64,000 nt of DNA from an uncultured Chloroflexota bacterium (GTDB lineage: Bacteria; Chloroflexota; UBA11872; VXNJ01): positions 128,032 through 192,031 of the forward strand of contig CAJWLF010000001.1 of assembly GCA_913043205.1 (NCBI GenBank), given 5' to 3'. Under the pieces are notes generated by a model. It was not told the origin of the DNA. It did not search any database and worked only from the letters and a program-made list of their open reading frames with translations. Positions 8,918 through 60,510 of this stretch are shown one piece after another. Position 1 is the stretch's first letter. The number at the start of each line of letters is the position of its first letter. A program made the translations under genes and the position numbers.

Positions 8918-8965
8918 CAGCCTGTTACACAAACCTTGCTTAAGGGTTTAAGGAGCTAATTTAAG

Positions 8966-39841: not shown

Positions 39842-39848
39842 TGGTGCA

Positions 39849-40508
39849 ATGGCTCGCAAAGTGTTTGTGGATTTTGATGGTACTATCGCTTCTCATGACG
39901 TCGGTAATCAGATATTGCAGGTTTTTGGCAACGAAGAGGTCATGAGAATCGATCAGTTGTGGATCAATGGAGACATATCTACACGTGAACGGGCTGAGGC
40001 TCAGTTTGCTCATATTGACGTTTCCGAATATGAGCTGAAGAGATTTGTGGACTCATTCCATGTCGAGCCTGATTTCATTGAATTTGTTGATTGGTGTCGT
40101 TCTAAGGATGTTGAATTAGAGATTCTCAGTGACGGGTTTGATTTTTACATTGATCGAATGCTGGCAGCTGTTGGGTTGACGGCATTGCCTCGACGGGCAA
40201 ATAGTCTGGCTTTTGAGGAAGACAAAATTATTTTGAGGTTTCCTTACGAAAATGATGGAAATCGCATGTTTGGAGTATGCAAGGATGTGTACCTACGGTC
40301 TGCAGCAAATTGTTATGAATCTATTGCTTTTATCGGAGACTCGAATTCAGACATTCCTGCCGCACCAATTGCCGATATTCTATTCGCACGCGAAGGCTTA
40401 ATTCTTGCTCGTTACTGCAAGCTTAATGAAATTCCAGTGTTCGAATTCTCTCGGTTTGTGGAGGTCAGTACTGTTTTACATGCCAAATGGTTTGACGAAG
40501 GGATCTGA
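39849..40508 (+). CDS. MtnX-like HAD-IB phosphatase
   Basis: DFDGT, LSDG, CK, IGDSNSD. Confidence 0.85.
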   Translation: MARKVFVDFDGTIASHDVGNQILQVFGNEEVMRIDQLWINGDISTRERAEAQFAHIDVSEYELKRFVDSFHVEPDFIEFVDWCRSKDVELEILSDGFDFYIDRMLAAVGLTALPRRANSLAFEEDKIILRFPYENDGNRMFGVCKDVYLRSAANCYESIAFIGDSNSDIPAAPIADILFAREGLILARYCKLNEIPVFEFSRFVEVSTVLHAKWFDEGI

Positions 40509-40522
40509 TGTAGGAAACAGGT

Positions 40523-42265: not shown

Positions 42266-42284
42266 CTATTATTGGAGTGTAGAT

Positions 42285-43199: not shown

Positions 43200-44430
43200 C
43201 TGGATGCTGCTAGGGTTAAGATCTCTTAGTTGGTTACTTGCAGCATCGTTATTATGTGTTGGGTTATGGTCCTGTAAAATTGGGCTTGATGGATATTTTC
43301 ATATTGAACCTCTCCAGCCTGATCGAAATGCGGTAACTTTTGCACTGGTCGCCAGAGATTTTGACCAACCTGTATTTATCACCAGTTCCCCTGAGGGATC
43401 CGCTGATTTGTTTGTAGCGGAACGAGGTGGTCGCATTTATCGTTTCGATTCTGACAGTGGGATTCGGAGCATTTTTCTCGATTTGTCAGATATTGTTTCG
43501 ACATCGGGTCTTGAACAAGGACTGCTAGGAATGGCATTTCACCCAAACTATCCTGAAGATGAACGCCTGTTTGTGAATTTTGTTGATTCTGATTGGGATA
43601 CTACCGTTGCATCAATCCGTGCAACGAGTAATGGTACGAACAGTATTCGCCGTGATTTTATGACGGTCATTCTGTCTATCCCACAGCCATTTAACAACCA
43701 TAATGGGGGTATGGTGACTTTTGGCCCTGATGGCCATCTGTACATAGGCACCGGAGATGGAGGCAGTCGAAATGACCCGTATGGCCATGGACAAGACCTT
43801 AATAGTCTGCTGGGCAAAATACTGCGGGTTGATGTGGATGAGTCTGGGGCCCAACCATATGCTATTCCCGATACGAACCCTTTTGTCGGCAGCGAGAATA
43901 AGCGCCCTGAAATTTTTAGTTACGGACTCCGCAATCCGTGGAGATTTTCCTTCGATGTGCAAACTGGCGATTTATGGATCGGAGATGTGGGGCAGAACCG
44001 ATATGAGGAGATTAATTATATAGCCGGAAATTCTCATGGCGGTCACAACTTTGGATGGAGTGATACAGAGGGTCCTGAATGTTTTAACAACCCTGGATGC
44101 CAGCCTGAGGTATACACTCTTCCAATAAGTCATTACGACACAAAAGATGGTTGTGCCATTACCGGGGGGTACGTTTACAGAGGCGATTCGAATCCTTCTC
44201 TTTACGGCACTTATGTTTTTGCTGACTATTGCAACGGCAAATTGTTCGGTGTTTCAAAGGCCAATGGGCGATGGGTAAAAGAATTGTTGATTGACAGTGA
44301 CTTGCACATCAGCTCATTAGGGCAAGACGCCAACAAAGAGCTGTATGTTGCTGATTTCAAATCCGGCAGTATATACCAACTTATGGAAGTTGAATCTCAA
44401 CATGGCTCAAGTTCTGGCGTTGGAATGTGA
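43186..44430 (+). CDS. PQQ-dependent sugar dehydrogenase (GSDH/YliI family), exported
   Basis: N-terminal hydrophobic segment, EQGLLGMAFHP, NHNGG, GDGG, GKILR, GLRNPWR, DVGQN..EE. Confidence 0.9.
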   Translation: MLSVNWMLLGLRSLSWLLAASLLCVGLWSCKIGLDGYFHIEPLQPDRNAVTFALVARDFDQPVFITSSPEGSADLFVAERGGRIYRFDSDSGIRSIFLDLSDIVSTSGLEQGLLGMAFHPNYPEDERLFVNFVDSDWDTTVASIRATSNGTNSIRRDFMTVILSIPQPFNNHNGGMVTFGPDGHLYIGTGDGGSRNDPYGHGQDLNSLLGKILRVDVDESGAQPYAIPDTNPFVGSENKRPEIFSYGLRNPWRFSFDVQTGDLWIGDVGQNRYEEINYIAGNSHGGHNFGWSDTEGPECFNNPGCQPEVYTLPISHYDTKDGCAITGGYVYRGDSNPSLYGTYVFADYCNGKLFGVSKANGRWVKELLIDSDLHISSLGQDANKELYVADFKSGSIYQLMEVESQHGSSSGVGM

Positions 44431-45080: not shown

Positions 45081-47378
45081 CTACTCGGACGCTCGAGATT
45101 GTCGGATAACGTTAATTGCTGAGCCAGCCCAGAACCATTCAATCTGATCTTTGTTTAGCGTATGGGACAAAGATATTAAATCAGTTGAGCCATTTGAGTG
45201 CCTGATTGAGGCTTGGAGTGATGTGTTTGGATTTATCTTACCTATGTCGCATATGGTTATGCGGTCATCTTTTCGTATCAAATTATAGTCATCGGAACTA
45301 TCAAAGGTGAGAGGCAAGATGCCCTGTTTTTTAAGATTTGATTCGGCAATCCTCGCAAAACTTCGAGCTATTATGGCGGCCGCTCCCAATAGCCTTGGCG
45401 ACATAGCGGCATGTTCCCTGCTGCTACCTTCACCATAGTTGTCATCACCTATTGCTACCCAGCTGCGAGACTTGTTTTTCCATGAACGTGCAATCTTAGG
45501 AATTGATATATCTTCTTCTCCAGTAATGGAGTTGAACCCATGTCCTGGAGAGGTTGCAAAACAATTATTCGCCCCAAGAAACATGTTGTCACTGATGTTG
45601 TTTAGATGCCCTCGGTATCGAAGCCACGGCCCGGCTGCTGATATGTGGTCTGTGGTACAAGGCCCGTCCGCTTTTAGGAGTACTGGCATATTCAGGTATT
45701 CATCTGGATGACGCTCTTCAAACGGTTTAAGACGTTCAAGCCTTTTGCTGTGGCTAGCGATTTTGACCATAACTTTTTCATCTGAATTCGGTGAAATATG
45801 ACCGTGGCCCCTACCAATATAGCCATTTTCTGGGATATCTTTGGCTTGGGATGGTGGCTTTAAGGTGAATGGTCCATTCGTTCCTTCTAACGCGTCTATG
45901 ACAGGATTGAAAGACAATTTGCCGCCTAGCGCAAACGCCACAGCTATCTCAGGGCTTACAATAAAAGCTAGGGTGTCAGGATTACCATCGTTTCTACGTG
46001 GGAAATTGCGATTGTAAGACGTGACGATTGAGTTTTGTGCGCCAGTTCTACTATCCGGTTGGTTGCTGGGTGCGAAGTCGTCTCTTTGCCACTGTCCGAT
46101 ACAGGGTCCACATGCATTTGCCAGCACCGTCCCCCCCACTTTCTCCAGGGTGCCCAATTGTCCATCTCTTTCGATAGTTGCACGAATCATTTCCGATCCT
46201 GGGGTAACTAAAAATGGGACACGACTGGTGGTTTCATTGCTGATAGCCTGCTCGGCTACAGCCGCGGCACGGGTAATGTCCTGATAGCTGGAATTTGTGC
46301 AGCTGCCTATTAGGCTAGCCGACAATTGATCCGGGTAACCGTGTTCAACAACGTCTTTTTGGAATTCGGACAATGGCCTGGCTAAATCTGGCCTATGAGG
46401 CCCTACCACATGCGGTTCTAGAGATGACAAGTCGATTTCGACAATTTGATCAAAAAATTCTTCAGGACTGTCGAGAACTTCTTGGTCGGCGGTCAATAAA
46501 TCGAGAGATGAGTCAGCTAGGTTTGCAATATCGGATCGATTTGTTGACCTAAGGTATCGGCCCATAGCTTTGTCGTAAGGGAATATGGATGTGGTGGCAC
46601 CAAGTTCCGCCCCCATGTTCGTTATCGTCCCTTTGCCAGTGGCAGCAATCGAAGTTGTCCCTGGTCCAAAATATTCGACTATGTGGTTTGTTCCTCCTTT
46701 GGCTGACAGTATCCCGGCTACCTTTAGAATTACGTCTTTTGGTGACGCCCACCCATCTAGATTACCAGTTAAACGAATGCCGATTAGTTTTGGTGCTAAT
46801 ACTTCCCACGGAAATCCCACCATCACGTCGGCAGCGTCTGCACCACCAACTCCTATAGCAAGCATGCCTAATCCACCAGCGTTTGGAGTATGGCTGTCGG
46901 TTCCTATAAGAAGCCCTCCTGGAAAGGCATAGTTTTCAAACAGCACCTGATGGATAATTCCAGATCCAGGTGACCAAAACCCCATACCATAACGCTGCGA
47001 AACCGATCTTAAAAACTTGTATACCTCGTCATTCTCTTGCTTGGCAGCCTTTAGATCACTGTCTGCTCCAATATGTGCACGAATTAAATGGTCACAATGA
47101 ATGGTTGTTGGAACCGATACCTCGTCCTTATCAGCCAGCATGAATTGCAGAGCTGCCATTTGTGCTGTGGCATCTTGCATAGCCACCCGGTCTGGTGTTA
47201 GTTGTAGATAGCTAACTCCCGGCACTAAGTCTTGTTTGGTATCGACAAGATGGCCGTACAAAAGTTTTTCTGACAGTGTTAAAGGCCGAGATACAGTGCT
47301 TCGCATCCCATCTAACCTCGACCGCATATTGGCGTAAACTTGTGCCACAAAATCCCTTGTCGAATCGATGCTGCTCAT
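45081..47378 (-). CDS. acn: Aconitate hydratase (mitochondrial-like type)
   Basis: DRVAMQDATAQMA, HCDH, DSHT, GSCTNSS, ACGPCIG, YNRNF, TTDHIS, GEGSSRE. Confidence 0.96.
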   Translation of the reverse strand: MSSIDSTRDFVAQVYANMRSRLDGMRSTVSRPLTLSEKLLYGHLVDTKQDLVPGVSYLQLTPDRVAMQDATAQMAALQFMLADKDEVSVPTTIHCDHLIRAHIGADSDLKAAKQENDEVYKFLRSVSQRYGMGFWSPGSGIIHQVLFENYAFPGGLLIGTDSHTPNAGGLGMLAIGVGGADAADVMVGFPWEVLAPKLIGIRLTGNLDGWASPKDVILKVAGILSAKGGTNHIVEYFGPGTTSIAATGKGTITNMGAELGATTSIFPYDKAMGRYLRSTNRSDIANLADSSLDLLTADQEVLDSPEEFFDQIVEIDLSSLEPHVVGPHRPDLARPLSEFQKDVVEHGYPDQLSASLIGSCTNSSYQDITRAAAVAEQAISNETTSRVPFLVTPGSEMIRATIERDGQLGTLEKVGGTVLANACGPCIGQWQRDDFAPSNQPDSRTGAQNSIVTSYNRNFPRRNDGNPDTLAFIVSPEIAVAFALGGKLSFNPVIDALEGTNGPFTLKPPSQAKDIPENGYIGRGHGHISPNSDEKVMVKIASHSKRLERLKPFEERHPDEYLNMPVLLKADGPCTTDHISAAGPWLRYRGHLNNISDNMFLGANNCFATSPGHGFNSITGEEDISIPKIARSWKNKSRSWVAIGDDNYGEGSSREHAAMSPRLLGAAAIIARSFARIAESNLKKQGILPLTFDSSDDYNLIRKDDRITICDIGKINPNTSLQASIRHSNGSTDLISLSHTLNKDQIEWFWAGSAINVIRQSRASE

Positions 47379-47572: not shown

Positions 47573-48703
47573 TTGAAACTTCATGAGCATCAAGCTCGCA
47601 AGCTGTTGTCTGAATTCTCCATACCGGTGCCTCGTGGGATAGTGGCTTCCTCAGTAGATGAGGCGATTTCGGCTTTTCACGAACTAGGAGGCCCGGTAGT
47701 GGTGAAGGCACAAGTCTTGTCTGGTGGGAGGGGAAAGGCTGGAGGGGTGGTATTAGCCAATAACGAGGCTGCCGTAGAATCCGCTGCAAAAAACATACTG
47801 CGTCTTGAGATAGGTGGATATTCTGTGAAGCGTCTTTTAATCACTGATGCTTGCGAAATTTCAAAGGAAATATATTTATCCGCTTTGATCGACAGAAACG
47901 CAGGGGCGATTGCTGTGATGGCTAGCTCCAAAGGCGGTATGGATATTGAAGAAGTGGCTCTGCAGTCGCCCGAATTGATAATGCGTAGACATGTTGATTA
48001 TGCCACGGGTCTCCCTCAATTTATGGCTCGAGAGTTGGGCTTTGAACTCGGTTTGGATTGGGATCAAGTGAAAGAGTTTCAGAGCATAGCGTCTAACCTA
48101 GTAGAGCTGCTGAAACAAGTCGATGCTTCACTTGTTGAGATTAACCCTTTGATTGTAGATGGTGAGGGCCATTGTCGGGCGATAGATGCAAAGATTGATT
48201 TAGATGACAATGCCATGGGCCGTCATCCTGAGCTGGAAAATCTTCGTAACCCGGAGGAGTATACCCGCGAGGAGATTGAGGCGCGAAACGCCGGCATTAG
48301 CTATATAAAATTGGATGGGAACATAGGGTGTATGGTCAATGGAGCAGGTTTGGCTATGGCTCTTCTTGATGTAATCAAAGGTGAGGGCGGAGAGCCAGCC
48401 AATTTTCTCGATGTCGGGGGTGGTGCTGATTCTGTACAGGTCCGAACAGCCATGAACATAATCCTGTCTGATCCAACTGTACGGGTTATCTTGATCAATA
48501 TTTTTGGAGGTATCACTAGATGTGACGAGGTTGCGAACGGTGTAATTGAAGCACTTGGGTCGATTTCCAAAGATGTTGATCTCGTAGTTCGCTTGGTTGG
48601 TACTAATGAGGATGAAGGGTTGTCGCTTTTGAAAACCGCTGGCATTTCAGCTCATTCGTCCATGGTTGAGGCGGTCAAACAGGCTGTTGAGCTGGCGTCA
48701 TGA
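47573..48703 (+). CDS. sucC: Succinyl-CoA synthetase beta subunit
   Basis: LHEHQA, KAQVLSGGRGKAGG, EINP, NGAGLAM, PANFLDVGGG, NIFGGITRCD. Confidence 0.97.
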   Translation: MKLHEHQARKLLSEFSIPVPRGIVASSVDEAISAFHELGGPVVVKAQVLSGGRGKAGGVVLANNEAAVESAAKNILRLEIGGYSVKRLLITDACEISKEIYLSALIDRNAGAIAVMASSKGGMDIEEVALQSPELIMRRHVDYATGLPQFMARELGFELGLDWDQVKEFQSIASNLVELLKQVDASLVEINPLIVDGEGHCRAIDAKIDLDDNAMGRHPELENLRNPEEYTREEIEARNAGISYIKLDGNIGCMVNGAGLAMALLDVIKGEGGEPANFLDVGGGADSVQVRTAMNIILSDPTVRVILINIFGGITRCDEVANGVIEALGSISKDVDLVVRLVGTNEDEGLSLLKTAGISAHSSMVEAVKQAVELAS

Positions 48704-49566
48704 GCATTCTGATCAATGAAAACACTAAAGTTATGGTTCAGGGAATTACCGGTAATCAAGGTTCATTTCACACCAACCTAATGCAGCAATATGGCACGAA
48801 CGTCATCAGTGGTGTCGTGCCCGGGAAAGGTGGCGAATCAGTCTTCGGCGTACCAGTTTTTGACACCGTCATTCAGGCTGTTGAGTTCGATAGACCAGAT
48901 TGTGCAGTGGTATTTGTTCCGGCCGCTGTTGCGGCTGATGCAATACTTGAGGAGGTGGCTTGCGGCATTCCATTAATTATTTGCATTACTGAGGGTATTC
49001 CGGTGCTTGATGTAACAAGAGTTATGCAGGCAGTAAATGCTTCCGGTGTCCGGCTGATTGGACCCAATTGCCCCGGTCTTATAAGCCCTGGTCGAAGCAA
49101 GGTTGGGATTATGCCGAGTCATATTCATATGCCGGGACCTGTAGGCGTCGTCAGCCGTAGTGGAACTCTCACTTATGAAGTCGTACAGGCTTTAACTGAT
49201 GCCGGCATCGGTCAAACTACATGTGTTGGGATTGGTGGGGACCCCATAATTGGCACATCTTTTGTTGAGGCCGTAAAAATGTTTCAAGAAGACGATGAAA
49301 CACGAGGTATTGTGGTCATAGGGGAGATTGGAGGGGAGGGTGAAGAACAATGTGCAGAGTATATAGGCAAATACGTAGACAAGCCGGTCGTAGGATTCAT
49401 TTCCGGTAGGTCAGCGCCCGCTGAAAAACGTATGGGGCACGCCGGTGCGATTGTCTCAGGTAGTACAGGGTCAGCTGATGCAAAAATTTCGGCCTTCGAA
49501 GAAGTCGGTGTTTCAGTCGCAAGGATTCCAACTGACATTGCCGCGTTAATTTCTGATTTATTGTGA
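48700..49566 (+). CDS. sucD: Succinyl-CoA synthetase alpha subunit
   Basis: QGITG, GPNCPG, SRSGTLTYE, GIGGD, GEIGG, MGHAGA. Confidence 0.97.
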   Translation: MSILINENTKVMVQGITGNQGSFHTNLMQQYGTNVISGVVPGKGGESVFGVPVFDTVIQAVEFDRPDCAVVFVPAAVAADAILEEVACGIPLIICITEGIPVLDVTRVMQAVNASGVRLIGPNCPGLISPGRSKVGIMPSHIHMPGPVGVVSRSGTLTYEVVQALTDAGIGQTTCVGIGGDPIIGTSFVEAVKMFQEDDETRGIVVIGEIGGEGEEQCAEYIGKYVDKPVVGFISGRSAPAEKRMGHAGAIVSGSTGSADAKISAFEEVGVSVARIPTDIAALISDLL

Positions 49567-49689
49567 TGTTTTGTTATGCATGATCGTGTGCGCAGACGGA
49601 TAACTGTGTAGGATATACGTTCAGGTGTTAATTAGAGTTATTACTTTGACGGGTTGTACAAGCAATCTGGGAAAGGCAAAAGCATAACT

Positions 49690-51333
49690 GTGATCCAGCA
49701 CGATGTAATCGTGGTTGGTGGTGGTGTTGCAGGCCTTAGTGCGGCTATAGCTGCAGCTGACAGAGGGTCTGTGGCTCTTATTTCAAAGAGCCACCCGCTG
49801 CGCTCAATGTCGGCAAGTATTCGTGAAGGTATTAATTGTTGTGATGATGATTTGTTCCCTTCATTGGTGGCGGATACGATCCACGCCGGCGAATATCTTA
49901 ATGATGTTAATGCTACAGAGGCATTGATCAAAAATTCCTCACAAATGGTCTCAAAGTTGGAGGAGTATGGGGTTGCCTTTACCCGAGATTCTGCAGGGTT
50001 GGCTGCAACGGCTAAATTACAAGGGGCTTCTCGTTCATATACTCGGTACTGTTCCGACCATACAGGAAGGGCGGTAGTTAATGCTTTGTGGAGCCAAGTG
50101 GTTAAGGCTGGCGTATCTGTATACGACGAATGGATGGCTACTAAATTACTTGTAGACGAGTCGACAGTGTGCGGTGTTGTTGCACTGGATATACGGTCTG
50201 GTCGTGTACATTCTTTTTCTGGTCGCTCTGTAGTCATTTGCTCGGGGGGGTATGGGGGTATATTTGCTGATAGTGCTGCGGGGTCCTATGTTTGCGGTGA
50301 TGGATTGGCGATGGCCTATCGAATTGGCGCCACCCTTAAGAATATGGAATTTGTGGATTTTCACCCTGCTGGACTTAGAACGGTTGATGGGATGCCATCA
50401 GATGGGGCAGCTATCGGTGATATGGCCATAGCCCTAGGGGCGCGATTCGTGAATTCTGATGGAGATGAGATAGACGTTGGGTTGAATAATGGGGTGCTTC
50501 CACCGGACCACATAATGTCAAACGCTCTCAGTAATGTGGCTGGTGATGTGGCATTAGATTTCACCACAATCGATAATGAGTTGATGGCTGAGATTATTCC
50601 TTCTTGTTTACCTCTTTTGCGTTCTATCACCACTACTTCATCTGATGGTATTAGAGTTTCAGTTAAGCCGGTTGTTAGGCGGGTAATCGGCGGTATAAAC
50701 ATAAATAGTGTCGGTGCGACTAATGTGTCAGGGCTATACGCTGCTGGTGAGGCTGCCTGCTCAGGGGTTCATGGAGCGGGGTTGCTAGCAGGGAATTCAA
50801 TGCTCGATGATTTTGTATCCGGATGGAATGCTGGCGTGGAAGGCAGTCGGGTTGAAGGTGGCTTTAGGACCATCAATGAAGGTGACGCGCATGATGAGCA
50901 GAATCGAATAGAGAGCATATTACGTAGAGATGAGGGGAACTCGGCGGCGGCAATTTCAAGTTCTCTAAGGCGCGCTATGTCCGATGGTTTTGGAGTCCTT
51001 AGATCACCGGATGGTATGGAAATTGCTTCTCAAGTGCTATTTGATTGTCGCGAATCCCTCAATGGTGTCGCCATTTACGATGGGCGAAGCCGCTATAATC
51101 AAGAATTAGTTAAAGTGCTTGAATTGCAGAATATGATAGAGGTTGCAGGTGCGCTGGTTACGTCTGCAATGGCACGAAAGGAATCACGGGGTAGTCATAA
51201 ACGTACTGATTTTATTGAGGTTGATGACGAGAGATATCAAAAACATTCTGAAATCACATTTCACCCCAATGGTTCTGAAGTATCTTTTGTGTCTTTTCCG
51301 GCAATTCGCTCCTCCCGACAGGAGGCTCAGTGA
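49690..51333 (+). CDS. SdhA/FrdA-like flavoprotein with a degenerate active site
   Basis: Collinear with SdhA ([36 protein letters not shown]) but most catalytic residues are substituted. GTG 49690 aligns with the FrdA start. Confidence 0.88.
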   Translation: MIQHDVIVVGGGVAGLSAAIAAADRGSVALISKSHPLRSMSASIREGINCCDDDLFPSLVADTIHAGEYLNDVNATEALIKNSSQMVSKLEEYGVAFTRDSAGLAATAKLQGASRSYTRYCSDHTGRAVVNALWSQVVKAGVSVYDEWMATKLLVDESTVCGVVALDIRSGRVHSFSGRSVVICSGGYGGIFADSAAGSYVCGDGLAMAYRIGATLKNMEFVDFHPAGLRTVDGMPSDGAAIGDMAIALGARFVNSDGDEIDVGLNNGVLPPDHIMSNALSNVAGDVALDFTTIDNELMAEIIPSCLPLLRSITTTSSDGIRVSVKPVVRRVIGGININSVGATNVSGLYAAGEAACSGVHGAGLLAGNSMLDDFVSGWNAGVEGSRVEGGFRTINEGDAHDEQNRIESILRRDEGNSAAAISSSLRRAMSDGFGVLRSPDGMEIASQVLFDCRESLNGVAIYDGRSRYNQELVKVLELQNMIEVAGALVTSAMARKESRGSHKRTDFIEVDDERYQKHSEITFHPNGSEVSFVSFPAIRSSRQEAQ

Positions 51334-52043
51334 TGGATAATGTTGAATTAGTTGTAACTAGATACGATCCAGAAATAGACGATTTTCATCGAAGTCAAAC
51401 ATTCTCTGTTAGGGCGGTGCCAGGCATGACTGTTCTTGATGCACTAGTTCAGGTCCGTGACGAACAGGATGGATCACTTCGTTTCAGAGAGTCGGAACCT
51501 GGTGGTTGGAGCGGTTCATGCGCGGTCACGGTTAATGACGTGCCGTGTCTGGCTTCCCGGACGCTTCTGGCTAGAGTTATATTAAATAATTCAGCTGTGA
51601 TAGGTCCTTTGAAGAATTTTCCGGTAATATGTGATCTGGTTGTTGACAACCCCATATATCTGGCAAAAATTGAAGCTTTGGAGCCTTGGGTAGATAACGC
51701 AAAAGAGCAACCTGCATCAATGACCCGTGAAGAGTATTTTAGATTGCGACGAACTGATGGGTGTGCCCTTTGTGGTATTTGTGATGCTAATTCGGATGAG
51801 TACCTGACTGATCCAATGTTTATTGGAGCAGCGTCATTACTGTGGACCTATCGTTTGACATCCGATTCGCGTGACTCGTTTGACCGAGAGCGCATGGAGG
51901 CTGTGCTTGGTAGCGGAGGGTTATGGGCCTTTTCTGGTGATACTTCCAGTGAGGATTTATGTCCTTATGCTATCGACCCAGTAAATCAAATTATGAGATT
52001 ACGAAATGCAGCCTCACAGAATGGATATGTTCCTACTGAATAG
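51330..52043 (+). CDS. SdhB/FrdB-like Fe-S protein missing most cluster cysteines
   Basis: RYDP, TVLDAL, DGSL.FR, PLKNFPVICDLVVD, CALCGIC, FIGAA, DSRD, LCP; translationally coupled to the upstream gene. Confidence 0.88.
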   Translation: MMDNVELVVTRYDPEIDDFHRSQTFSVRAVPGMTVLDALVQVRDEQDGSLRFRESEPGGWSGSCAVTVNDVPCLASRTLLARVILNNSAVIGPLKNFPVICDLVVDNPIYLAKIEALEPWVDNAKEQPASMTREEYFRLRRTDGCALCGICDANSDEYLTDPMFIGAASLLWTYRLTSDSRDSFDRERMEAVLGSGGLWAFSGDTSSEDLCPYAIDPVNQIMRLRNAASQNGYVPTE

Positions 52044-52091
52044 AGATGGTTTGGTGATAATGGGTCACCATTCATAAGGAGGTTTTGAATA

Positions 52092-53018
52092 ATGCGGCCT
52101 AAAGTGACTGTTGTCGGAGCTGGTGCGACAGGCGGATCTACCGCGAGAAGGGTAGCCGCTCGCGGATATGCTGACGTGGTGCTACTGGACATAATGGCAG
52201 ACTTTGCTGCCGGCAAAGCCCTGGATTTAAATCAGGCAGGCTCTTTGGTCGGGTATCCGCCGAATATAGTTGGAACCGGGTCTTATGAAGATACTCGCGG
52301 ATCTTCTGTTTGCGTAATAACCTCTGGGTTTCCTCGGAAGCCTGGAATGTCTCGAGATGATCTATTGCTTGGCAACAAGGAAATTATTGAAATCGTTGTC
52401 GAAAAGCTTTTAGACGAGTCTCCTGACACCATTTTGGTAATCCTAACGAATCCTATGGACGCGATGGCTCAATTAGCTCTCCACGTGTCTGGATTACCAC
52501 GCCAAAAAGTTATAGGACAAGGTGGGATACTTGATACTGCTAGATATCGGACATTCATTGCATGGGAGCTCGGTGTAGCGGCTGATGATGTATCTGGTTT
52601 CGTTCTTGGTGGTCATGGAGATACGATGGTACCAGTACCCAGTTATACATCGGTAGCAGGCATTCCTGTAACGGAACTTATTGATGCTGATCGATTGGAA
52701 GAAATTGTTCAGCGTGCACGTGATGGTGGGGCCGAAGTTGGAGGTCTGATGAAAGTCGCTAGTGCATTTGAGGCGCCTGGAGAGGCCTGTGCAATGATGG
52801 TTGATTCCATAATGCTTGATCAGAAACGAATATTTCCCTGCGCTGTACAGCTGGAAGGTGAGTTTGATATTGATGGGACCTTCGTCGGTGTTCCAGTTAA
52901 GTTGGGTAGCGGTGGAGTGGAACAGATAATGCCGCTGAAATTGTCGTCTACTGAAATATCAGATCTAAAAAAGTCAGCTGATGCAGTAGTTGAACTGGTT
53001 AAAATTATGGGTATCTAG
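52092..53018 (+). CDS. mdh: Malate dehydrogenase (LDH-like)
   Basis: GAGATG, GKALD, PRKPGMSRDDL, NPMD, LDTAR, LGGHGD; AAGGAGG SD. Confidence 0.96.
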   Translation: MRPKVTVVGAGATGGSTARRVAARGYADVVLLDIMADFAAGKALDLNQAGSLVGYPPNIVGTGSYEDTRGSSVCVITSGFPRKPGMSRDDLLLGNKEIIEIVVEKLLDESPDTILVILTNPMDAMAQLALHVSGLPRQKVIGQGGILDTARYRTFIAWELGVAADDVSGFVLGGHGDTMVPVPSYTSVAGIPVTELIDADRLEEIVQRARDGGAEVGGLMKVASAFEAPGEACAMMVDSIMLDQKRIFPCAVQLEGEFDIDGTFVGVPVKLGSGGVEQIMPLKLSSTEISDLKKSADAVVELVKIMGI

Positions 53019-53100
53019 GCATACGAATACATCGGACTTGTAATTGTCCTATTGAGTCGTCGCATCTGTCTGCGAGGTGTGGCTGCCGATGATGAGTGTT

Positions 53101-53457
53101 TTAGAGCCCTGCAAGTAATAATGCAGCTAGCCCGGAAGCCCCAAGGGCGCTTAGATAACATAGTGTTGCCGCTATTGGATCTGGTATTGGAATACGAGTG
53201 TCATGTATCGTATGGCGTATCCGATGAGCGGCGTGCATTAACGATGCTCCTATAACGGCTAATACGACGATGCGTACGATCCAGTTGCTAAGCAGTGAGT
53301 ATATTCGATCATACGAAAAGGCCACTTGGGCCTCTTCTATTCCAAATCCACCTAAAATAGTAGATGCAATTAATGAAGGTATTAGCATTGCTGACACGAC
53401 TCCACCACCACTAAATATTAGCCAGAACAATGCTTCGTTCGATCCACGAGGCTTCAT
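53101..53457 (-). CDS. frdD: Fumarate reductase subunit D (membrane anchor)
   Basis: SNEALFWLIFSGGG and HAAHRIRHTIHD match enterobacterial-type FrdD; start trimmed to ATG 53457. Confidence 0.9.
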   Translation of the reverse strand: MKPRGSNEALFWLIFSGGGVVSAMLIPSLIASTILGGFGIEEAQVAFSYDRIYSLLSNWIVRIVVLAVIGASLMHAAHRIRHTIHDTRIPIPDPIAATLCYLSALGASGLAALLLAGL

Positions 53458-53915
53458 GAAAATATCATCCATAGAACAATAGAGCTTACTCCCAACCACA
53501 CTATGTAAAGGGGAGTGATTAAAAATAGTGGCGATATCGGAGATTCTCCTTTAAGTATCCGTACCGCTTTCGGCGTCAGATTAAACCAAGTTACCGTATG
53601 AAATAACGCAAAGAGCAAGGTAAATACTTGAATTACCGTTAATGGTGGCGACCATAGCAACTCCATATAGTCGTTGTATGCTTCTGCTCCGATATACAAA
53701 GCCGCTATCAACCCTATAAACAGTATGAGGTATAAAGCGATAAAGACTGAGGTTAGCTCTCTAATAAATACGAAGAAATAAGACGATCCCCGTAGCCACC
53801 ACGTTGCCCCTAAATCTGGACGTGGGCGAGTATCACGCTGTCTGTATCTCGTGTGATTAAGCCACCAATTTGAGTGCAAGTTATGGGAAGGACGGCGTTT
53901 TTCGGGGTCAGTCAT
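53454..53915 (-). CDS. frdC: Fumarate reductase subunit C (membrane anchor)
   Basis: TWWL...Y..FIRELTS and HTVTWFNLTPKA; start trimmed to ATG 53915. Confidence 0.9.
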   Translation of the reverse strand: MTDPEKRRPSHNLHSNWWLNHTRYRQRDTRPRPDLGATWWLRGSSYFFVFIRELTSVFIALYLILFIGLIAALYIGAEAYNDYMELLWSPPLTVIQVFTLLFALFHTVTWFNLTPKAVRILKGESPISPLFLITPLYIVWLGVSSIVLWMIFS

Positions 53916-54661
53916 TTGTTCCCTTTTGGCATAATCAATGATTTGGCATAGGCCAGGGCACTTTCGAGCTTGGCTTGTTGTATCGCGGCTGCCGGATCTA
54001 CTCCTTTTGGGCATACATTTGAACACTCTCCCACGAAGGTACAGTCCCAAACACCCTCATTGGCCATAAGAACATCTAGTCTTTGCTCTTTTCCTGAGTC
54101 GCGAGAGTCCAAGTTATATCGCTGGGCTAGCGCTATGGCTGCAGGTCCAACGAATTCAGGTTCGTTGCTGGCCACGGGGCACGCAGAGTAACACAGGGTG
54201 CAGTTAATACACATGCTGTATTGCTTGTATTTTGCCAGTTGAGCAGGTGTTTGTTTGTATTCTCGGTTCGCGGGAGGGACCGAGTCTCCTTCAATTAACC
54301 AGGGCTTCACGGAGTCTAGTTTGTGGATAAAGTCATCCATATCCACTATAAGATCTCGTTCAACTCTGAAATTGGCCAATGGTTCAACAACGATAGGGTC
54401 TGGGTAGTATTCTGAGAGAAACGCGGAACATGTGAGCTTGGGTTTGCCGTTAATCATCATCCCGCAACTGCCGCACACTCCCATTCGGCACGACCATCGA
54501 TAAGCTAGCGATCCGTCAACGTAATCTTTTATGTAATTAAGCGCATCAAGAACAACCCAATCTTCGTTGTACGGAACCATGTATTCATCATAGCCGTCCG
54601 TGGTCTGCCCTTCGGTGTATCTGGATATTTTTAGGGGTATTCTGTCAGTATCCACGGTCAT
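53912..54661 (-). CDS. frdB: Fumarate reductase/succinate dehydrogenase Fe-S subunit
   Basis: All clusters intact: [37 protein letters not shown]. Confidence 0.96.
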
Positions 54662-56418
54662 TTTCCTCCTCCGTATATACGTTTAGCTGGCGGGAGGTTA
54701 GTGATGACAACATCCTTGTGCTCGATTCGCGGTGCGTCATCGGTGTTGTACGCAAGAGAATGTTTTAGGAACTCGTCATCATCTCGCTCTGGGAAATCAG
54801 TTCGCTGGTGAGATCCACGAGATTCTTTTCGGCGGAGCGCAGAGAACGTGACTGTCTCTGCAATATCAAGCATGAAGTCTAGCTCTATTGCAGAAGTTAA
54901 TTCTGTATTGTAGGACAGGCTAGTGTCATCTAGTTTAAGGTTTTTGGATCGTTTGCGTAGCTCTGTGATCGTTGTACAGGCCTTTTGCATTCCTTCCGCA
55001 TTTCGGTATATTCCTGCTCCTTCTTCAAGCGCGGATGTCATTATATTTCTGAGATCCGCTATTTTTTCATCCCCGGCTCGATTTCCGAGCAGCTCCGAAA
55101 TCCTATTAATCTCGTCTTGAGTCTGGGAGAGCAGGTCGTTTTCCCCAGATATGCCGTGCTGTTGGGCGAATATGGCTGCATTTCTGCCGGCTTGCGCCCC
55201 AAAAACTAGCAGTTCAGTTAGCGAATTGGAGCCTAGTCTATTTGCACCATTAATGCTTACGCATGCGCATTCTCCGGCTGCGTATAGTCCCGGTAGGGTA
55301 GTCGCGGCTTCAATATCCGTATCTATGCCGCCCATCATGTAATGCACCACAGGACGCACGGGGATAGGTTCGTGTACAGGGTCTACCCCACCATAGTTGT
55401 TAGACAACTCCCTTACGAAAGGTATCTTTTTCTCAATATATGATTCACCCAAATGTCTTACGTCTAAATGAACGTAAGTACCATGAGGGCCTTCAAAGAC
55501 ATTACCTTTGGTTTGTTCGTGTATGAACGCCTGCGACAAACGATCTCGGGGACCTAGTTCCATTGTTCGGTTTTTCGGATGATCATGATGATCTATAGGG
55601 AGAGGCTTGCCTAGATCATAGTCGCTGAGGTAACGATGTCCTTTGTTATTGACAAGGATCCCTCCCTCTCCTCGGGCTGCTTCGGTAATTAGAATACCGG
55701 TTCCTGGTAGTCCTGTTGGGTGGTATTGAACAAATTCCATGTCTTTCAATGCAACCCCTGCCCTGTAGGCTAGAGCCATTCCATCTCCGGTCTTGATTGC
55801 AGCATTCGTAGTAAATGGGAACACTCTTCCGCCTCCGCCTGTGCACATAATTACTGCCTTCGCAAGTATCGGTACGATCCGTCCTGTGCGCAACTCCATT
55901 GCAGCTACCCCTTGGCACCTACCATCGTGGGTTAACAGCCTAAGCGCCATCCATTCGTCATACCGTTGCAAGCTCCTATATTTGAGAGTTGTTTGGAACA
56001 GTGAGTGAAGTACATGGAACCCAGTTTTGTCCGCTGCAAACCATGTACGTTCAATCTGCATTCCGCCAAATGGGCGAACTGCAACGCTGCCGTCTGATTC
56101 GCGGCTCCAGGGACACCCCCAGTGTTCGAGTTGAATCAACTCCGACGGTGCTGTTCTCACGAAAAATTCAACAGCGTCCTGGTCCGCTAGCCAGTCTGAT
56201 CCGCTCACCGTGTCATAGATGTGATCCTCAAAACTGTCATTGGGCTTGATGACGGCTGCCATGCCACCTTCTGCAGCCACCGTATGGCTGCGCATTGGGT
56301 AGACCTTGGAAACTACAGCCACGTCCAAATCTGGGTTCTCTTGAGACACCGCAATAGCAGCCCTAAGCCCTGCCCCTCCACCTCCAATAATTAGAATGTC
56401 GTGTTTGATAGAGCGCAT
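54658..56418 (-). CDS. frdA: Fumarate reductase/succinate dehydrogenase flavoprotein
   Basis: [43 protein letters not shown] all intact. Confidence 0.97.
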
Positions 56419-56611: not shown

Positions 56612-57688
56612 ATGGATATAGGACTATTTTTGATGCCCCTGCATCCGCCAGAGAAACCCCCGTCCATGTCGATAGCTGAGGATCTGGAACTGATCGTACA
56701 CGCTGACAAATTGGGTTTCAGTGAGGCTTGGGTTGGGGAGCATATGACTGCTAAGTGGGAAATTATAGGATCACCTGATCTGTTTTTGTCTCATGCCTTT
56801 GCCATGACCAAAGATATTCGACTTGGGACGGGAGTGTATTTATTGGCCGTACATCACCCGTCTGATGTCGCCACTAGAGCAGCTTTGTTGGACCAAATCT
56901 CTAAAGGTCGATTCAATTTTGGTGTCGGGACAGGCAGCGTCCCTAGCGATCGTCCTTTTAAGAACGTTGTGGACGATGCCAAGGTCATGAATGGACGGTT
57001 TACGGAGAGCCTTGAGATTATTTTAGGCATATGGCAGGCAGAGCCACCCTGGAAATATGAGGGTGAATATTGGACGGTGGAATTGACTGATCAATGGGCG
57101 GATCTAGATATGGGTTTCCCACTAAAACCCTTTACCAAACCTCATCCCCCTATCGCGATACCTGGGTTTTCTCGCGATTCTGGGTCAATCTTTGAAGCTG
57201 GGAAGAGGGGTTGGGGGGCTCTGTCAACGAACCTTGCGAGTAATGACATTATTGGAACTCACCAATCACGCTACAAGCAAGGCATGGAATTGGACGGAGG
57301 GGTTTTTCGGCCACAGGGCTGGCGAGTGGCCCGAGAAGTACACGTTGCTGATACTGATCAAGAAGCTATGGAGTATGCGATCAATGGCCCGATGGGCGAG
57401 GCATTTCGCAGGTACATGCTGCCTTTGTGTAAGAAGAATATTCCTGACGGGCTTGGTATTTTTAAGGATGATCCCAGCATCCCTGACAGTGATGTGACAG
57501 TGGAGTACCTAGCAGAAAATGTATGGTTGGTCGGTAGTCCGGATACTGTTGCAGATAAAATCAATCAATTTATGGGTAGTTACGGCGAATTTGGGACACT
57601 GCTGGTTGTAGCCCATGATTGGGTTGATGCAGCCCCAGTGCTTCATAGCATGGAATTGTTAGCAGGTGAGGTGCGGCCTGCAATTTAA
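56612..57688 (+). CDS. Luciferase-like (LLM class) flavin-dependent oxidoreductase
   Basis: GLFLMPLHP, LGFSEAWVGEH, IRLGTGV, LDQISKGRFNFGVG, PHPPI, VGSPDTV. Confidence 0.92.
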   Translation: MDIGLFLMPLHPPEKPPSMSIAEDLELIVHADKLGFSEAWVGEHMTAKWEIIGSPDLFLSHAFAMTKDIRLGTGVYLLAVHHPSDVATRAALLDQISKGRFNFGVGTGSVPSDRPFKNVVDDAKVMNGRFTESLEIILGIWQAEPPWKYEGEYWTVELTDQWADLDMGFPLKPFTKPHPPIAIPGFSRDSGSIFEAGKRGWGALSTNLASNDIIGTHQSRYKQGMELDGGVFRPQGWRVAREVHVADTDQEAMEYAINGPMGEAFRRYMLPLCKKNIPDGLGIFKDDPSIPDSDVTVEYLAENVWLVGSPDTVADKINQFMGSYGEFGTLLVVAHDWVDAAPVLHSMELLAGEVRPAI

Positions 57689-57716
57689 CCTGGTTAGTGG
57701 ATTCTTATGGATTGGT

Positions 57717-58712
57717 TTAAGGGTTTAAGTTCCTAGCGATGTGGAGGAGCCAACACACTCGTTCTAGAGTTGTGTCCAGAGTCACATGGATCGGCTGATC
57801 CTCAATTTTCGATATGGTTGGTCTCCTGAGCCAAACGCCGTCAGGTGTTTGGGTATCGATGAGCATAGTGGCCACCTGCTCGGCAGCTACCTTGAAGTTC
57901 AGTTGCTGGGTTGCCAGAAACAATTCAGAGCAACCCCAGCCAACCTTTGCTGCTGTTAGATCATTGAAGGCTCCGGGAGCACATTTGTTAGCCCAGTCGA
58001 ATAATATGTCGCATGTAGTTAAAAACGACGAGTCTTGAGTTGTTTGGAATAGTCTCGCCAATGCTGCCATACATATGCCAAGAGGCCAATAAATCTGGTG
58101 TGCAGCGCCTAAGTCTAGTTTGTATCTGGATTTGTCAGATTTGGCATAGGTATCTATCCAATTCCCATCCCATGATTGGCGAAATAATACGTACTCAGTA
58201 GGATCTGGTTGCGTCGCAATCATTCTCTGTACTAGATGTTCTCCGGCCAAAATGGCTTGATTTGTCATGCCAAGTTCAAGCATTCCTAGGAGGGTAGCAG
58301 AGGTTGTCGCAAGGTCGATCTCACGCTTTTCGTTTGCAATTGGTTTCCGTGCTAATACCCCCCCGGTTTCAGGATTTTGCATCGAGTTTAGATGTGCAGC
58401 TAACGAAGGTCGCAAGTTGTCGTTGTCGTCTGGCGTAGTTCCCACAGATAACATTGCATTTCGAAAAGTAGCAACGTTAGATCCAGTATCGTTGGTCCCT
58501 TTATTAATGTCGCCATCTCTCACCATAGTCCGCTTTACATAACTCAACGCCGCTTCTGCTAAGTCAGGAAAGCCTGACATCCTAAATGCGAGTGGTGCTA
58601 AGTAATACGCTCCCACCTCATGACTTGCATCGCGGAAGGATCCGTCGCCCTTGAGTAACGATCTTGCCCATGTCATGGCTGATTGGGCTGAATCTTGGTA
58701 AACACTGATCAT
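57717..58712 (-). CDS. Hypothetical protein, probable alpha/alpha barrel
   Basis: 331 aa helical ORF with QNPETGG and QTPDGVW motifs resembling QW repeats. Confidence 0.65.
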   Translation of the reverse strand: MISVYQDSAQSAMTWARSLLKGDGSFRDASHEVGAYYLAPLAFRMSGFPDLAEAALSYVKRTMVRDGDINKGTNDTGSNVATFRNAMLSVGTTPDDNDNLRPSLAAHLNSMQNPETGGVLARKPIANEKREIDLATTSATLLGMLELGMTNQAILAGEHLVQRMIATQPDPTEYVLFRQSWDGNWIDTYAKSDKSRYKLDLGAAHQIYWPLGICMAALARLFQTTQDSSFLTTCDILFDWANKCAPGAFNDLTAAKVGWGCSELFLATQQLNFKVAAEQVATMLIDTQTPDGVWLRRPTISKIEDQPIHVTLDTTLERVCWLLHIARNLNP

Positions 58713-58733
58713 GAAATTGGTTTGTCGACTAGG

Positions 58734-58949
58734 TTACCGAGCGTTTTTGGGGGCATGTTTTGGCATAACCTTTCCGCAATTTGCCCTACCTTTTAAGTGG
58801 TGTGAGTTTCCTTTACGTATCACCGGTGTCGTATGTGATCGAATTTCACCTATGCTTGTCTTTAACTGCTGCATTTCAACTATTGTCCAGAGTGAAATAC
58901 TTAAAGCGATAGATGCCAAGATAGCTATCAGCCAGTAGGGAATATATAT
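58734..58949 (-). CDS. Possible small single-pass membrane protein
   Basis: Hydrophobic IPYWLIAILASIALSISLWTIV followed by a basic tail; start unclear (ATA 58949 or TTG 58919). Confidence 0.35.
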   Translation of the reverse strand: MYIPYWLIAILASIALSISLWTIVEMQQLKTSIGEIRSHTTPVIRKGNSHHLKGRANCGKVMPKHAPKNAR

Positions 58950-59109
58950 TCACAAATCCTTACTCCAAGTCACATTCAGATGTGGATGGCTCTAATGCCC
59001 CCTAAGCAATGTTGGCATAATATCTCCCTATTCGTAAACTTAGCCGGAAAGCGTGGTAGTCGAATATTGGCAAGTTGGTGATCTGAACGCTATATCGGAG
59101 GAGGGTTCT

Positions 59110-60510
59110 ATGCAACAACCTAACGTGGTGATGATTGTTGCTGATGACATGGGGTACGGGGATTTCGGAATGTTCAACCAAGGTCCTGCTCGTACTCCAA
59201 CGATAGATGAGTTGGCGCGTGAAGGGATATGTCTCACGCAACATTATTCCGGTTCTTGCGTGTGCGCTCCTGCCCGCGCGGCTCTGTTAACGGGTCGATA
59301 TCCACATAGGACCGGGACCATCGACACTCTAGAAGGACTTGGACTGGATAGATTAGGGATTGAAGAAGTCACGATTGCGGATCGGCTTAGGGGGGCGGGA
59401 TACCGGACTGGACTAATCGGTAAATGGCATTTGGGAGCTCTGGATGAACGCTATCATCCTAATGCGCGAGGATTTGATGAGTTTGTTGGATTTCGTGGGG
59501 GTTGGTCGGACTACTATCAGTGGAGGCTCGATCGCAATGGTGCAATCGAAGAAGGGGATGGGAGCTATTTAACTGATGTTTTGGCCGCTGAGGCCAGTAT
59601 GTTTATAAGACGTAATTCTGAAATGCCTTTTTTTGTTCACGTGGCCTTCAATGCGCCACATACCCCTTTGCAAGCACCTGAAGAGTTTGTGCAAAGATAT
59701 AGGGAGTCCGGGATGGAGGGTGGAGTTGAATATATTTATGCCATGAACGAGTGTATGGATAAAGGTGTCGGACAAATTCTAAGTACTTTGGATGAGGTAG
59801 GTTGCACAGACAATACGATTGTTATGTTTACGAGCGACAATGGGCCACAAATGAACGTGGGATATTCATATATCGATGGCAGGAACATAGATACCCGTAG
59901 ATTCAATTGTGGATTTAATGGGGCAAAGGGAAACGTCTATGAGGGTGGTATACGAGTGCCTATGATCCTGAAATGGCCAGGCCGACTGCCTGTAAACACC
60001 CATTCAGATGCATTTGTGCATTATGTTGACTGGGTGCCCACATTACTTGACTTTATAGGAATAGAGTATCAGTTGGATCTTCCGTTGGATGGAACAAGTC
60101 TTGCAACCGTTTTGAGCGGCAAACTCCAGCAAGAACAGCCCGTTCGGTTTTGGCAGTGGAACAGGTATTCACCGGTAATGGAAAGCAACGCCGCTGTACG
60201 TGATGGCAGGTGGAAGCTTATTCGTCCGAGAATCGATGAGTATATGCAGGTAAAGGCAGAGCACTCTCAGATGGATAGAGATCTCAGATATAGTCCTGAA
60301 TTGCATACGGCAGCGCATATAGGGGACGAGCCAATTCGCGACATTCCTAAAGCGGCAGCGATAGAGTTATACGATTTGAGACAAGATCCATCTGAAACTA
60401 CTAATTTGGCGAATGCTCATCCAGAGAAGGCGGAGGAATTAATGTCAAAGCTCGCGCTTTGGTTTGATGAAGTGGAGTCTGAAAGAATTCGCAAAGTCGA
60501 CTTCGCATAG
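59110..60510 (+). CDS. Arylsulfatase (Cys-type)
   Basis: PNVVMIVADDMGYGD, CAPARAALLTGR, GKWHLG, APH, SDNG, YEGGIRVP; GGAGG SD before ATG 59110. Confidence 0.95.
   Translation: MQQPNVVMIVADDMGYGDFGMFNQGPARTPTIDELAREGICLTQHYSGSCVCAPARAALLTGRYPHRTGTIDTLEGLGLDRLGIEEVTIADRLRGAGYRTGLIGKWHLGALDERYHPNARGFDEFVGFRGGWSDYYQWRLDRNGAIEEGDGSYLTDVLAAEASMFIRRNSEMPFFVHVAFNAPHTPLQAPEEFVQRYRESGMEGGVEYIYAMNECMDKGVGQILSTLDEVGCTDNTIVMFTSDNGPQMNVGYSYIDGRNIDTRRFNCGFNGAKGNVYEGGIRVPMILKWPGRLPVNTHSDAFVHYVDWVPTLLDFIGIEYQLDLPLDGTSLATVLSGKLQQEQPVRFWQWNRYSPVMESNAAVRDGRWKLIRPRIDEYMQVKAEHSQMDRDLRYSPELHTAAHIGDEPIRDIPKAAAIELYDLRQDPSETTNLANAHPEKAEELMSKLALWFDEVESERIRKVDFA

Follow-up and report, generated by a model that had tools for sequence, protein, structure and literature searches.

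What does a citric-acid-cycle operon do with a second pair of complex II subunits when an intact fumarate reductase is encoded beside it? The question is raised by a 64,000-nucleotide stretch of the genome of an uncultured Chloroflexota bacterium (the window; all coordinates given here are positions in it, on the forward strand). On its plus strand, sucC, sucD and mdh enclose two genes, which we call A' and B', and the operon sucC-sucD-A'-B'-mdh converges on an intact minus-strand frdABCD. A' (49690-51333, + strand) encodes a divergent SdhA/FrdA-like flavoprotein of 547 amino acids, and B' (51330-52043, + strand) an SdhB-like protein of 236-237 amino acids. Both genes are maintained by purifying selection and are not decaying, and the residues lost from their products support the view, also taken in the first-pass annotation, that the pair would be unable to carry out canonical succinate/fumarate chemistry or quinone electron transfer. 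Our leading explanation, to which we give somewhat less than an even chance, is that A'B' is a soluble, cofactor-bearing pseudoenzyme that partners the co-expressed citric-acid-cycle enzymes in a structural or regulatory role.

A' shows both domains of a complex II flavoprotein, FAD_binding_2 (PF00890, 2.8e-53) and Succ_DH_flav_C (PF02910, 2.2e-26), and falls below the cut-off of every SdhA/FrdA/NadB model in NCBIfam. Against TIGR01812 it scores 359 bits, below a cut-off of 567.3, while the neighbouring FrdA reaches 753.6. The two flavoproteins of the window are 34% identical, and the motifs by which the first-pass annotation had told them apart (SDHTG and GVHGA against ADKTG and SINGA) are present, as CSDHTG and GVHGAG in A' and as ADKTG and SINGAN in FrdA. 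Nine active-site positions were read from alignments with the window's FrdA and with relatives, and are given in E. coli FrdA numbering (R287 and R390 as named in PMC9557727). The histidine at position 44, which binds flavin adenine dinucleotide (FAD) covalently, is a methionine in A' (RSHTVA in FrdA, RSMSAS in A'). The histidine of the HPxG motif at position 232 is kept, and the remaining positions are changed: threonine 234 to alanine, threonine 244 to glycine, glutamate 245 to aspartate, arginine 248 to isoleucine, arginine 287 to aspartate, histidine 355 to arginine and arginine 390 to leucine. A' thus reads M-H-A-G-D-I-D-R-L where the canonical pattern is H-H-T-T-E-R-R-H-R, and of the six residues with substrate or catalytic roles (H232, T244, E245, R287, H355 and R390), H232 alone remains. 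All nine are canonical in each of the four FrdA proteins checked from the order and in both complex II flavoproteins checked from the genus called g4 below; a set of 122 sequences, made up of the 120 best database hits and two references, has the canonical pattern in 104. Two of the lost residues are described in the passages of PMC9557727 that deal with FrdA, where R287 is the catalytic arginine and R390 hydrogen-bonds the substrate carboxyl and supports flavinylation.

Much of the protein has nevertheless been kept. The structural model of A' is confident (predicted local distance difference test, pLDDT, 91.7; predicted template modelling score 0.93) and superposes on E. coli FrdA (1kf6_A) with a template modelling (TM) score of 0.92. 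Across 114 canonical flavoproteins, 126 alignment columns reach at least 97% conservation; the A' of the window's genus keeps 77 of these, including the dinucleotide-binding glycines of the N-terminal GxGxxG, the GLYAAGE motif and the C-terminal RxESRGxHxRxD. These conserved motifs suggest that A' retains flavin binding and the subunit interface.

B' has lost two of its three iron-sulfur sites. It matches the N-terminal Fer2_3 model only, and no Fer4 Pfam model matches it; it is 28% identical to FrdB and scores 148.6 bits against TIGR00384, above the cut-off of 88. The four [4Fe-4S] cysteines (C145, C148, C151 and C211) are kept and are invariant in 15/15 aligned sequences. At the [2Fe-2S] site three of four cysteines are gone, the aligned residues being E, S, C and S; the loop now reads RFRESEPGGWSGSC, and the segment that has replaced it is RFRESEPGGWSGS. 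At the [3Fe-4S] site, beside the quinone site, all three cysteines are lost (S, F and S). By comparison, all 11 cluster cysteines are present in 133 of 153 SdhB-type sequences (the 150 best profile hits plus three references), among which only P0002, P0126 and P0129 lack both the [2Fe-2S] and the [3Fe-4S] site. The model of B' (pLDDT 90.3) resembles canonical SdhB clusters (TM 0.92-0.94), which were its only matches in the ESM Atlas.

Outside the family, four single SdhB-like representatives (P0248, P0296, P0255 and P0312) lack the [3Fe-4S] ligands and keep the other two clusters; some of these may be fragments or alignment artefacts.

The pair also has no membrane anchor of its own, as had been claimed in the first-pass annotation: no anchor gene was found in the sucCD-A'-B'-mdh operon at any locus examined, and in the 93.6%-complete genome, Sdh_cyt-type matches were weak only, being frdC, frdD and one 88-amino-acid frame with an internal stop. 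Lacking a [2Fe-2S] relay, a [3Fe-4S] cluster and an anchor, A'B' would therefore no longer be an oxidoreductase of the succinate/fumarate type.

The two reading frames are uninterrupted and translationally coupled, again as first described. At the junction (51320-51335, + strand), an AGGAGG (51320-51325) is followed by GTGATG, and the A' stop codon TGA (51331-51333) overlaps the B' start, which is either GTG 51330 or ATG 51333. Identical proteins in the databases measure 547 amino acids for A' and 236 for B'; the starts are therefore probably GTG 49690 and ATG 51333, although the A' frame is open from a TTG at 49654. Within A', a 198-amino-acid antisense open reading frame (ORF; 49641-50237, - strand) has no support and is probably fortuitous, the coding sequence being rich in G; the GC skew across the operon is about +0.2 to +0.26.

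A' and B' probably form a soluble, anchor-less heterodimer, derived from the A and B subunits of complex II; the coupling of their genes and structure prediction both favour a dimer. The predicted complex scored 0.94, against 0.00 for the best of three controls, with at least 93% contact agreement between runs and a partner pLDDT of at least 86. The same mark is attained in 58 of 80 solved complexes and in 2 of 110 mismatched pairs, counts that are rough here because our own alignments were used; as complex II structures have been solved, the result may reflect likeness to these only, and not binding. In the predicted interface, A' 34-43 (SHPLRSMSAS, the former covalent-histidine loop) and A' 228-241, which is inserted in the A' clade only, pack against B' 53-63 (RESEPGGWSGS), so that the remodelled loops of the two proteins would face each other.

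The family to which the pair belongs is narrow. A B'-family profile run against 1.84 billion cluster representatives retrieved three family clusters (453, 386 and 324 bits), followed by canonical SdhB at 211 bits. Of the 57 species genomes of the order, 19 belong to one family and 38 to the other; the profile scored at least 273 bits in 13 of the former and in none of the latter, all other hits scoring at most 166 bits. In an even sample of the phylum (401 genomes, 82 families), the pair was found in nine genomes, all of this one family. A peptide-pattern scan of 185,579 species genomes returned eight loci of the Chloroflexota family; of the other 18 loci, two are too fragmentary to judge and the rest encode canonical FrdB/SdhB. 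All relatives are metagenome-assembled genomes of Chloroflexota, and the stretch itself turns up in sequencing runs labelled as marine or seawater metagenomes.

The carriers span four genera of the family: g1 (the window and L051), g2 (L018, L019 and L048), g3 (L046) and g4 (L013-L017); one more g4 genome (80% complete) carries a B' fragment at the end of a contig. The gene order sucC-sucD-A-B-mdh is the same in 12/12 loci (L013-L019, L046, L048, L051, the window and the fragmented L036). In L051, a sister contig, the order matches that of the window down to the facing frdDCBA. No conserved new electron donor or acceptor gene was found beside A'B' at the loci read.

Comparison of the genera reveals a graded series of losses. 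Absent from all members are the [3Fe-4S] ligands, the covalent histidine and R390, the last being gone in 11/11 clade members examined. Other residues have been lost differently in each lineage. In g2 and g3, A lacks the covalent histidine (glycine or alanine), H232 (asparagine) and R390 (proline or serine). In g4, A keeps H355 only, has histidine or proline in a changed context at the covalent position, and has a capping domain shortened by about 45 residues, the Arg287 region among them. B of g4 has lost the [2Fe-2S] as well as the [3Fe-4S] site, and that of g1 is like it. That g1 keeps H232, g4 H355, and g2 and g3 five of the old residues suggests a common ancestor that had already abandoned catalysis.

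What replaced the lost residues is itself conserved. A' of g1 and g4 are 31-33% identical, against 57% for SucC and 71% for Mdh, and share the motifs GA[AV]IGD.A.A.GAR[FY], [NS]IR[DE]G[IL]N and HGAGLLAGN; the B' proteins share LRFRE[SA]EPGG[FW]SG. At seven positions that hardly vary in other sequences, g1 and g4 are both fixed for a derived state. In B', the stretch standing in place of the [3Fe-4S] and anchor-facing region varies by genus, and is acidic and hydrophilic both in g1 (SGDTSSED) and in g2 (DPDxSWDD).

Such conservation is matched by the pattern of substitution. Ratios of nonsynonymous to synonymous substitution rates (dN/dS) were computed by the Nei-Gojobori method with our own script on gap-free columns only. 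Pairwise values for A'B' lie between 0.06 and 0.19 overall, similar to those of sucC and sucD. Between the window and L051 (dS about 1-1.6), the ratio is 0.138 for A' and 0.060 for B', compared with 0.121 for SucC, 0.043 for SucD and 0.046 for Mdh, and with 0.042, 0.047, 0.126 and 0.122 for FrdA, FrdB, FrdC and FrdD. Within g4 (three pairs, dS 0.34-0.61), it is 0.14-0.17 for A' and 0.10-0.12 for B', and in the same pairs 0.11-0.19 for sucC, 0.10-0.13 for sucD and 0.06-0.08 for mdh. In 13/13 carrier genomes, and in L051 too, A' and B' are unbroken frames (about 1.64 kb and 0.71 kb), the matches being free of stops. Because of these low ratios, the open frames, the fixed locus and the conserved replacement motifs, we conclude that A'B' is under purifying selection. 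The first-pass annotation had named dN/dS near 1 or broken copies in relatives as the mark of ordinary decay; neither was seen.

There is also a weak sign that A' and B' are transcribed, which the first-pass annotation had likewise asked about. Two metatranscriptome runs, from two separate studies, contain contigs that fall on A' (50355-50507, 50731-50929 and 51026-51190 from run X4; 51069-51293 from run X10), on B' (51551-51717, X4) and over the B'/mdh junction (51886-52127, X4). X4 contigs also lie on parts of mdh, frdA and acn; since only assembled contigs were used, they give no reading of transcript amount, strand or ends, and stretches without RNA cover in X4 (e.g., sucC, sucD and frdB-D) carry no meaning.

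The origin of the pair was approached through two trees. The first (quick IQ-TREE) contained 45 flavoproteins, including 20 of the 120 database hits and leaving out L015, and was rooted on the genome's NadB-like protein. In it, the A' proteins of all four genera fall into a single clade (Shimodaira-Hasegawa-like approximate likelihood ratio test [SH-aLRT] support 96; g1 with g4, 99; g2 with g3, 100), a separate, long-branched lineage outside the clade of the order's FrdA proteins. The latter group, with support of 100, with FrdA of Acidobacteriota, Myxococcota and Opitutales. Recent duplication of frdAB is ruled out by the low identities (34% and 28%) and by this tree, in agreement with the first-pass annotation. 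The second tree, of the housekeeping proteins SucC, SucD and Mdh (11 rows, 971 columns, L015 again left out), resolves g4, g1 and (g5,(g3,g2)) with all branches starred, and is compatible with vertical descent of A'B' with the operon. Here g5 is a genus of the same family without A'B' (L043; G013:C4, about 3173-9632), in which acn is divergent and sucC-sucD-mdh-frdA-frdB-frdC-frdD run in one direction. As this tree is unrooted, a loss in g5 and a later gain in the others are not separable. Composition gives no signal of horizontal import either way: the GC content of A'B' (0.46-0.49) is that of its neighbours.

Among the database hits were other SdhA-like proteins with unusual active sites. 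P0009, P0013, P0018 and P0116 share the changes T234>L, R248>L and R390>A/G, P0011 and P0111 have glutamine at the covalent-histidine position, and these six form a clade of their own in the flavoprotein tree (SH-aLRT 89); P0045 is a further SdhA-like protein with a non-canonical pattern. Judging from their residues, these may be cases in which other lineages, too, turned a complex II flavoprotein to a new use.

The first-pass annotation had supposed that a native Sdh was displaced by an enterobacterial-type Frd, and had proposed a look at the co-occurrence of A'B' with frdABCD. The relatives do not support the displacement, nor is a facing frdABCD constant among them. An E. coli-type frdABCD, its FrdA 68-74% identical to that of the window, is present in 10/10 relatives' loci compared (L039-L045, L047, L049 and L050), and since these represent both families of the order, it is native to the order and is the order's own complex II. 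It adjoins A'B' in g1, and lies about 100 kb off in g2 and about 165 kb off in g3. Genus g5 has frdABCD without A'B', and g4 has A'B' without an E. coli-type Frd (FrdB). Instead, the operon of g4 faces a different, canonical and non-orthologous complex II downstream of mdh (L014:9727-13121; also in L013 and L015-L017), with a canonical SdhA-like ORF of 674 amino acids and an SdhB-like gene that are 31-35% identical to the window's FrdAB. A 276-amino-acid ORF without a Pfam match lies upstream of this complex II and is a candidate anchor.

Taken together, we propose that A'B' would be made together with SucCD and Mdh and would act through binding, not catalysis. Its flavin and its remaining cluster would be electrically isolated from each other and from quinone, and the [4Fe-4S] cluster, the flavin or both could serve in folding or in sensing of redox state, O2 or iron. 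A more elaborate form of this idea, which we regard as doubtful, is a regulatory pseudoenzyme in which the [4Fe-4S] cluster, possibly with a non-covalent flavin, senses oxygen, iron or redox state, and the dimer gates SucCD, Mdh or fumarate reductase. If this were true, the four genera would form a stepwise record of a respiratory module turned sensor, in which the [3Fe-4S] cluster, the covalent FAD and one arginine were lost first, followed by the [2Fe-2S] cluster and the remaining catalytic residues. The roles suggested in the first-pass annotation (decoy, assembly factor, partner in a hetero-oligomer, flavin-[4Fe-4S] sensor) are likewise conjectural.

Several points weigh against a non-catalytic role, which is argued by elimination. 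A of g2 and g3 keeps T244, E245, R248, R287 and H355, and B of these genera keeps the [2Fe-2S] and [4Fe-4S] sites, only the [3Fe-4S] site being absent. All orthologues share the loss of the [3Fe-4S] ligands, the covalent histidine and R390, while the [2Fe-2S] site and most catalytic residues survive in g2 and g3; the g2 and g3 members may be working soluble oxidoreductases, and the family is then not uniformly 'dead'. The derived motifs round the former active site may equally mark a new substrate pocket. Binding of FAD and of a cluster by A'B' is read from conserved residues, and the isolation of the two cofactors presumes that, with [2Fe-2S] gone, electrons could not cross the distance between FAD and [4Fe-4S], as judged from solved complex II structures and not from the model of A'B'. 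As to the supporting data, in the flavoprotein tree it is the A' rows that draw warnings of long branches and unusual composition, so that deeper placement is uncertain; dS for the window and L051 comes close to saturation; and the RNA runs were picked for holding these genes, were available as contigs only, and may include DNA carry-over.

The main rival, possible although in our view unlikely, is that A'B' is a neofunctionalized enzyme: a flavin catalyst on another substrate, less polar or not a dicarboxylate, with the rebuilt pocket as its active site and B' as a structural subunit or as the point at which electrons enter or leave through a soluble carrier. This would account for the conservation of motifs lining the old site between genera whose A' proteins have diverged so far, for the seven derived states fixed in g1 and g4 and for the kept FAD-binding motifs, and soluble SdhA homologues with other substrates are known from the part of PMC10238741 that concerns them. 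It is more plausible for g2 and g3, where the proton-shuttle arginine, one histidine, the Thr-Glu-Arg hinge and the [2Fe-2S] and [4Fe-4S] sites remain. However, the genera keep different old residues, a pattern like that of released constraint, and g4 has deleted the capping-domain segment that includes the Arg287 region. Moreover, g1 and g4 have no [2Fe-2S] cluster to carry electrons off the flavin, and no new donor or acceptor gene is kept beside the pair.

Less probable still, and improbable on the whole, is a decoy or mixed complex, in which A' and B' would compete for the FrdCD anchors or pair with canonical subunits (A'-FrdB, FrdA-B') and so tune complex II. The pair does adjoin a complex II operon in g1 and in g4, and its interface of the SdhA-SdhB type appears to be preserved in the model, with the C-terminal RxESRG of A' kept. 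Yet the complex II at hand differs by genus, being adjacent in g1, distant in g2 and g3 and non-orthologous in g4, and the acidic, genus-variable B' segment fits solvent exposure better than contact with a membrane anchor.

We consider it very improbable that A'B' is a working but unusual Sdh/Frd, relying on other residues and on a soluble redox partner. Its place between succinyl-CoA ligase and mdh follows the order of the pathway, the HPxG histidine is kept, and g1 has an arginine at the H355 position. Against this, five of the six substrate and catalytic positions are changed, including both the catalytic and the carboxyl-binding arginine (in the roles given in the FrdA passages of PMC9557727), the [2Fe-2S] and [3Fe-4S] clusters are missing, and the genome already has an intact FrdABCD. 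Finally, that the genes are relics of a redundant Sdh left open by chance is scarcely credible and already contradicted: A' does evolve fast, has long stems in the tree and has lost catalytic residues in different combinations by genus, but the frames are open in all carriers at dN/dS of 0.06-0.19, the replacement motifs are conserved, a strong Shine-Dalgarno sequence precedes B' with its start/stop overlap, and both folds are confidently predicted.

The surrounding genes bear out the gene order and strands of the first-pass annotation. The operon opens with sucC, for the beta subunit of succinate-CoA ligase (47573-48703, + strand; NF001913, 469 bits, cut-off 370), followed by sucD, for the alpha subunit (48700-49566, + strand; NF004230, 414 bits, cut-off 336). 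Beyond A' and B' lies mdh, for a malate dehydrogenase of the LDH-like type (52092-53018, + strand; TIGR01763, 382.5 bits, cut-off 351.85); a second AGGAGG (52077-52082) stands ahead of it, in the 48-nucleotide context downstream of the B' stop. On the minus strand follow the anchor genes frdD (53101-53499; PF02313) and frdC (ORF 53454-54050; PF02300). As the PF02300 match spans residues 80-197, the real start of frdC is probably downstream of the listed one. They are joined by frdB (53912-54661, - strand; NF009051, 342.8 bits, cut-off 333), a canonical iron-sulfur subunit with 11/11 cluster cysteines, and by frdA (54658-56418, - strand; NF006686, 912.6 bits, cut-off 854), a canonical quinol:fumarate reductase flavoprotein with 9/9 checked positions canonical. 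A promoter and terminator scan gave counts no higher than those in shuffled sequence.

In the host genome, which is 93.6% complete, full-length FAD_binding_2 proteins number three (FrdA, A' and a 521-amino-acid NadB-like protein) and Fer2_3 proteins two (FrdB and B'). The flavinylation factor SdhE/Sdh5 (PF03937) was not found in this genome, though FrdA keeps its covalent-FAD histidine.

Divergent from sucC is a gene for aconitate hydratase (45081-47378, - strand), a context that is kept in relatives. This aconitase passes the 'mitochondrial-type' equivalog TIGR01340 (985.5 bits, cut-off 825.35), an unusual type for Chloroflexota, and is 62-63% identical to those of g2, g3 and g5 and 88% to that of L051. 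Further out (37607-44430 and 56612-60510), the flanks encode a PcrA-type helicase, an ATP-dependent DNA ligase, a pyrroloquinoline quinone (PQQ)-dehydrogenase-like protein, a luciferase-like (LLM) oxidoreductase and an arylsulfatase-like protein, none of which is kept beside the operon in the other genera examined.

The sole fumarase candidate of the genome is a class II lyase (29583-30986, - strand), which passes the aspartate ammonia-lyase subfamily model (599, cut-off 510) and fails the fumC equivalog (497, cut-off 665). Its orthologue directly follows mdh in g2 and g3 (L046 and L048), which suggests that it is the fumarase of the cycle; class I fumarase domains were not found in the 93.6%-complete genome. 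The idea that A'B' replaces a fumarase was dropped, as the presence of this AspA/FumC-family lyase leaves no gap to fill.

Complex II is among the best-studied respiratory enzymes, and A'B' would be a clear bacterial example of a respiratory module turned to another use. As natural intermediates, its graded genera could reveal where the fold depends on the [4Fe-4S] cluster and how much change the A-B interface can bear. Annotation is affected too: labels such as 'succinate dehydrogenase / fumarate reductase subunit', assigned to A'B' by homology, would inflate metabolic reconstructions of marine Chloroflexota, as a second Sdh/Frd counted from this pair almost certainly does not exist.

How, then, does A'B' compare with known systems? 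Closest in build is the soluble domain of complex II (E. coli FrdAB/SdhAB), with which it shares both folds, the A-then-B order, translational coupling, the predicted interface and the [4Fe-4S] ligands. It differs in having no covalent-FAD histidine, five of six catalytic residues missing, no [2Fe-2S] or [3Fe-4S] site and no anchor, and in the low TIGR01812 score of A' (359 against 567.3). NadB, the flavocytochrome c fumarate reductases and yeast Osm1 bind FAD non-covalently. These enzymes of the NadB type retain the catalytic arginine and histidine set and act by themselves or jointly with a haem domain, whereas A' has lost the set and keeps an SdhB-like partner, to which it is translationally coupled. 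A' also scores only 268.7 bits against the NadB model TIGR00551 (cut-off 452.75), and the genome has a separate NadB-like gene. What A' has in common with them is that they are soluble flavoproteins of the superfamily without quinone chemistry, as described in the portion of PMC10238741 devoted to them.

Pairs of the SdhA/SdhB type without classical transmembrane anchors are known as SdhABE/MFR in epsilonproteobacteria and as TfrAB in methanogens. These are active enzymes that keep all clusters and catalytic residues and have an extra cysteine-rich subunit or domain; no such cysteine-rich subunit was found beside A'B' at the loci examined. Matches of A'B' to these non-classical models are partial (TfrA 265, TfrB 99.9 and MFR SdhA 219 bits, with cut-offs of 718, 385 and 1100). 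A full-text literature search, with supplements outside its scope, found no published description of a catalytically degenerate SdhAB-like pair.

The nearest documented functional analogy is the yeast Tim18-Sdh3 module of the TIM22 translocase, which, as far as the relevant section of PMC10238741 describes it, is a complex II paralogue without cofactor (no haem) that has taken on a non-respiratory role and kept its partner interface. Tim18-Sdh3 would be an analogue of A'B' and not a relative, as it consists of eukaryotic membrane subunits and A'B' of bacterial soluble ones. By fold and ancestry, A'B' belongs to the complex II superfamily, and it fails the defining features of a working SdhA/FrdA and SdhB/FrdB.

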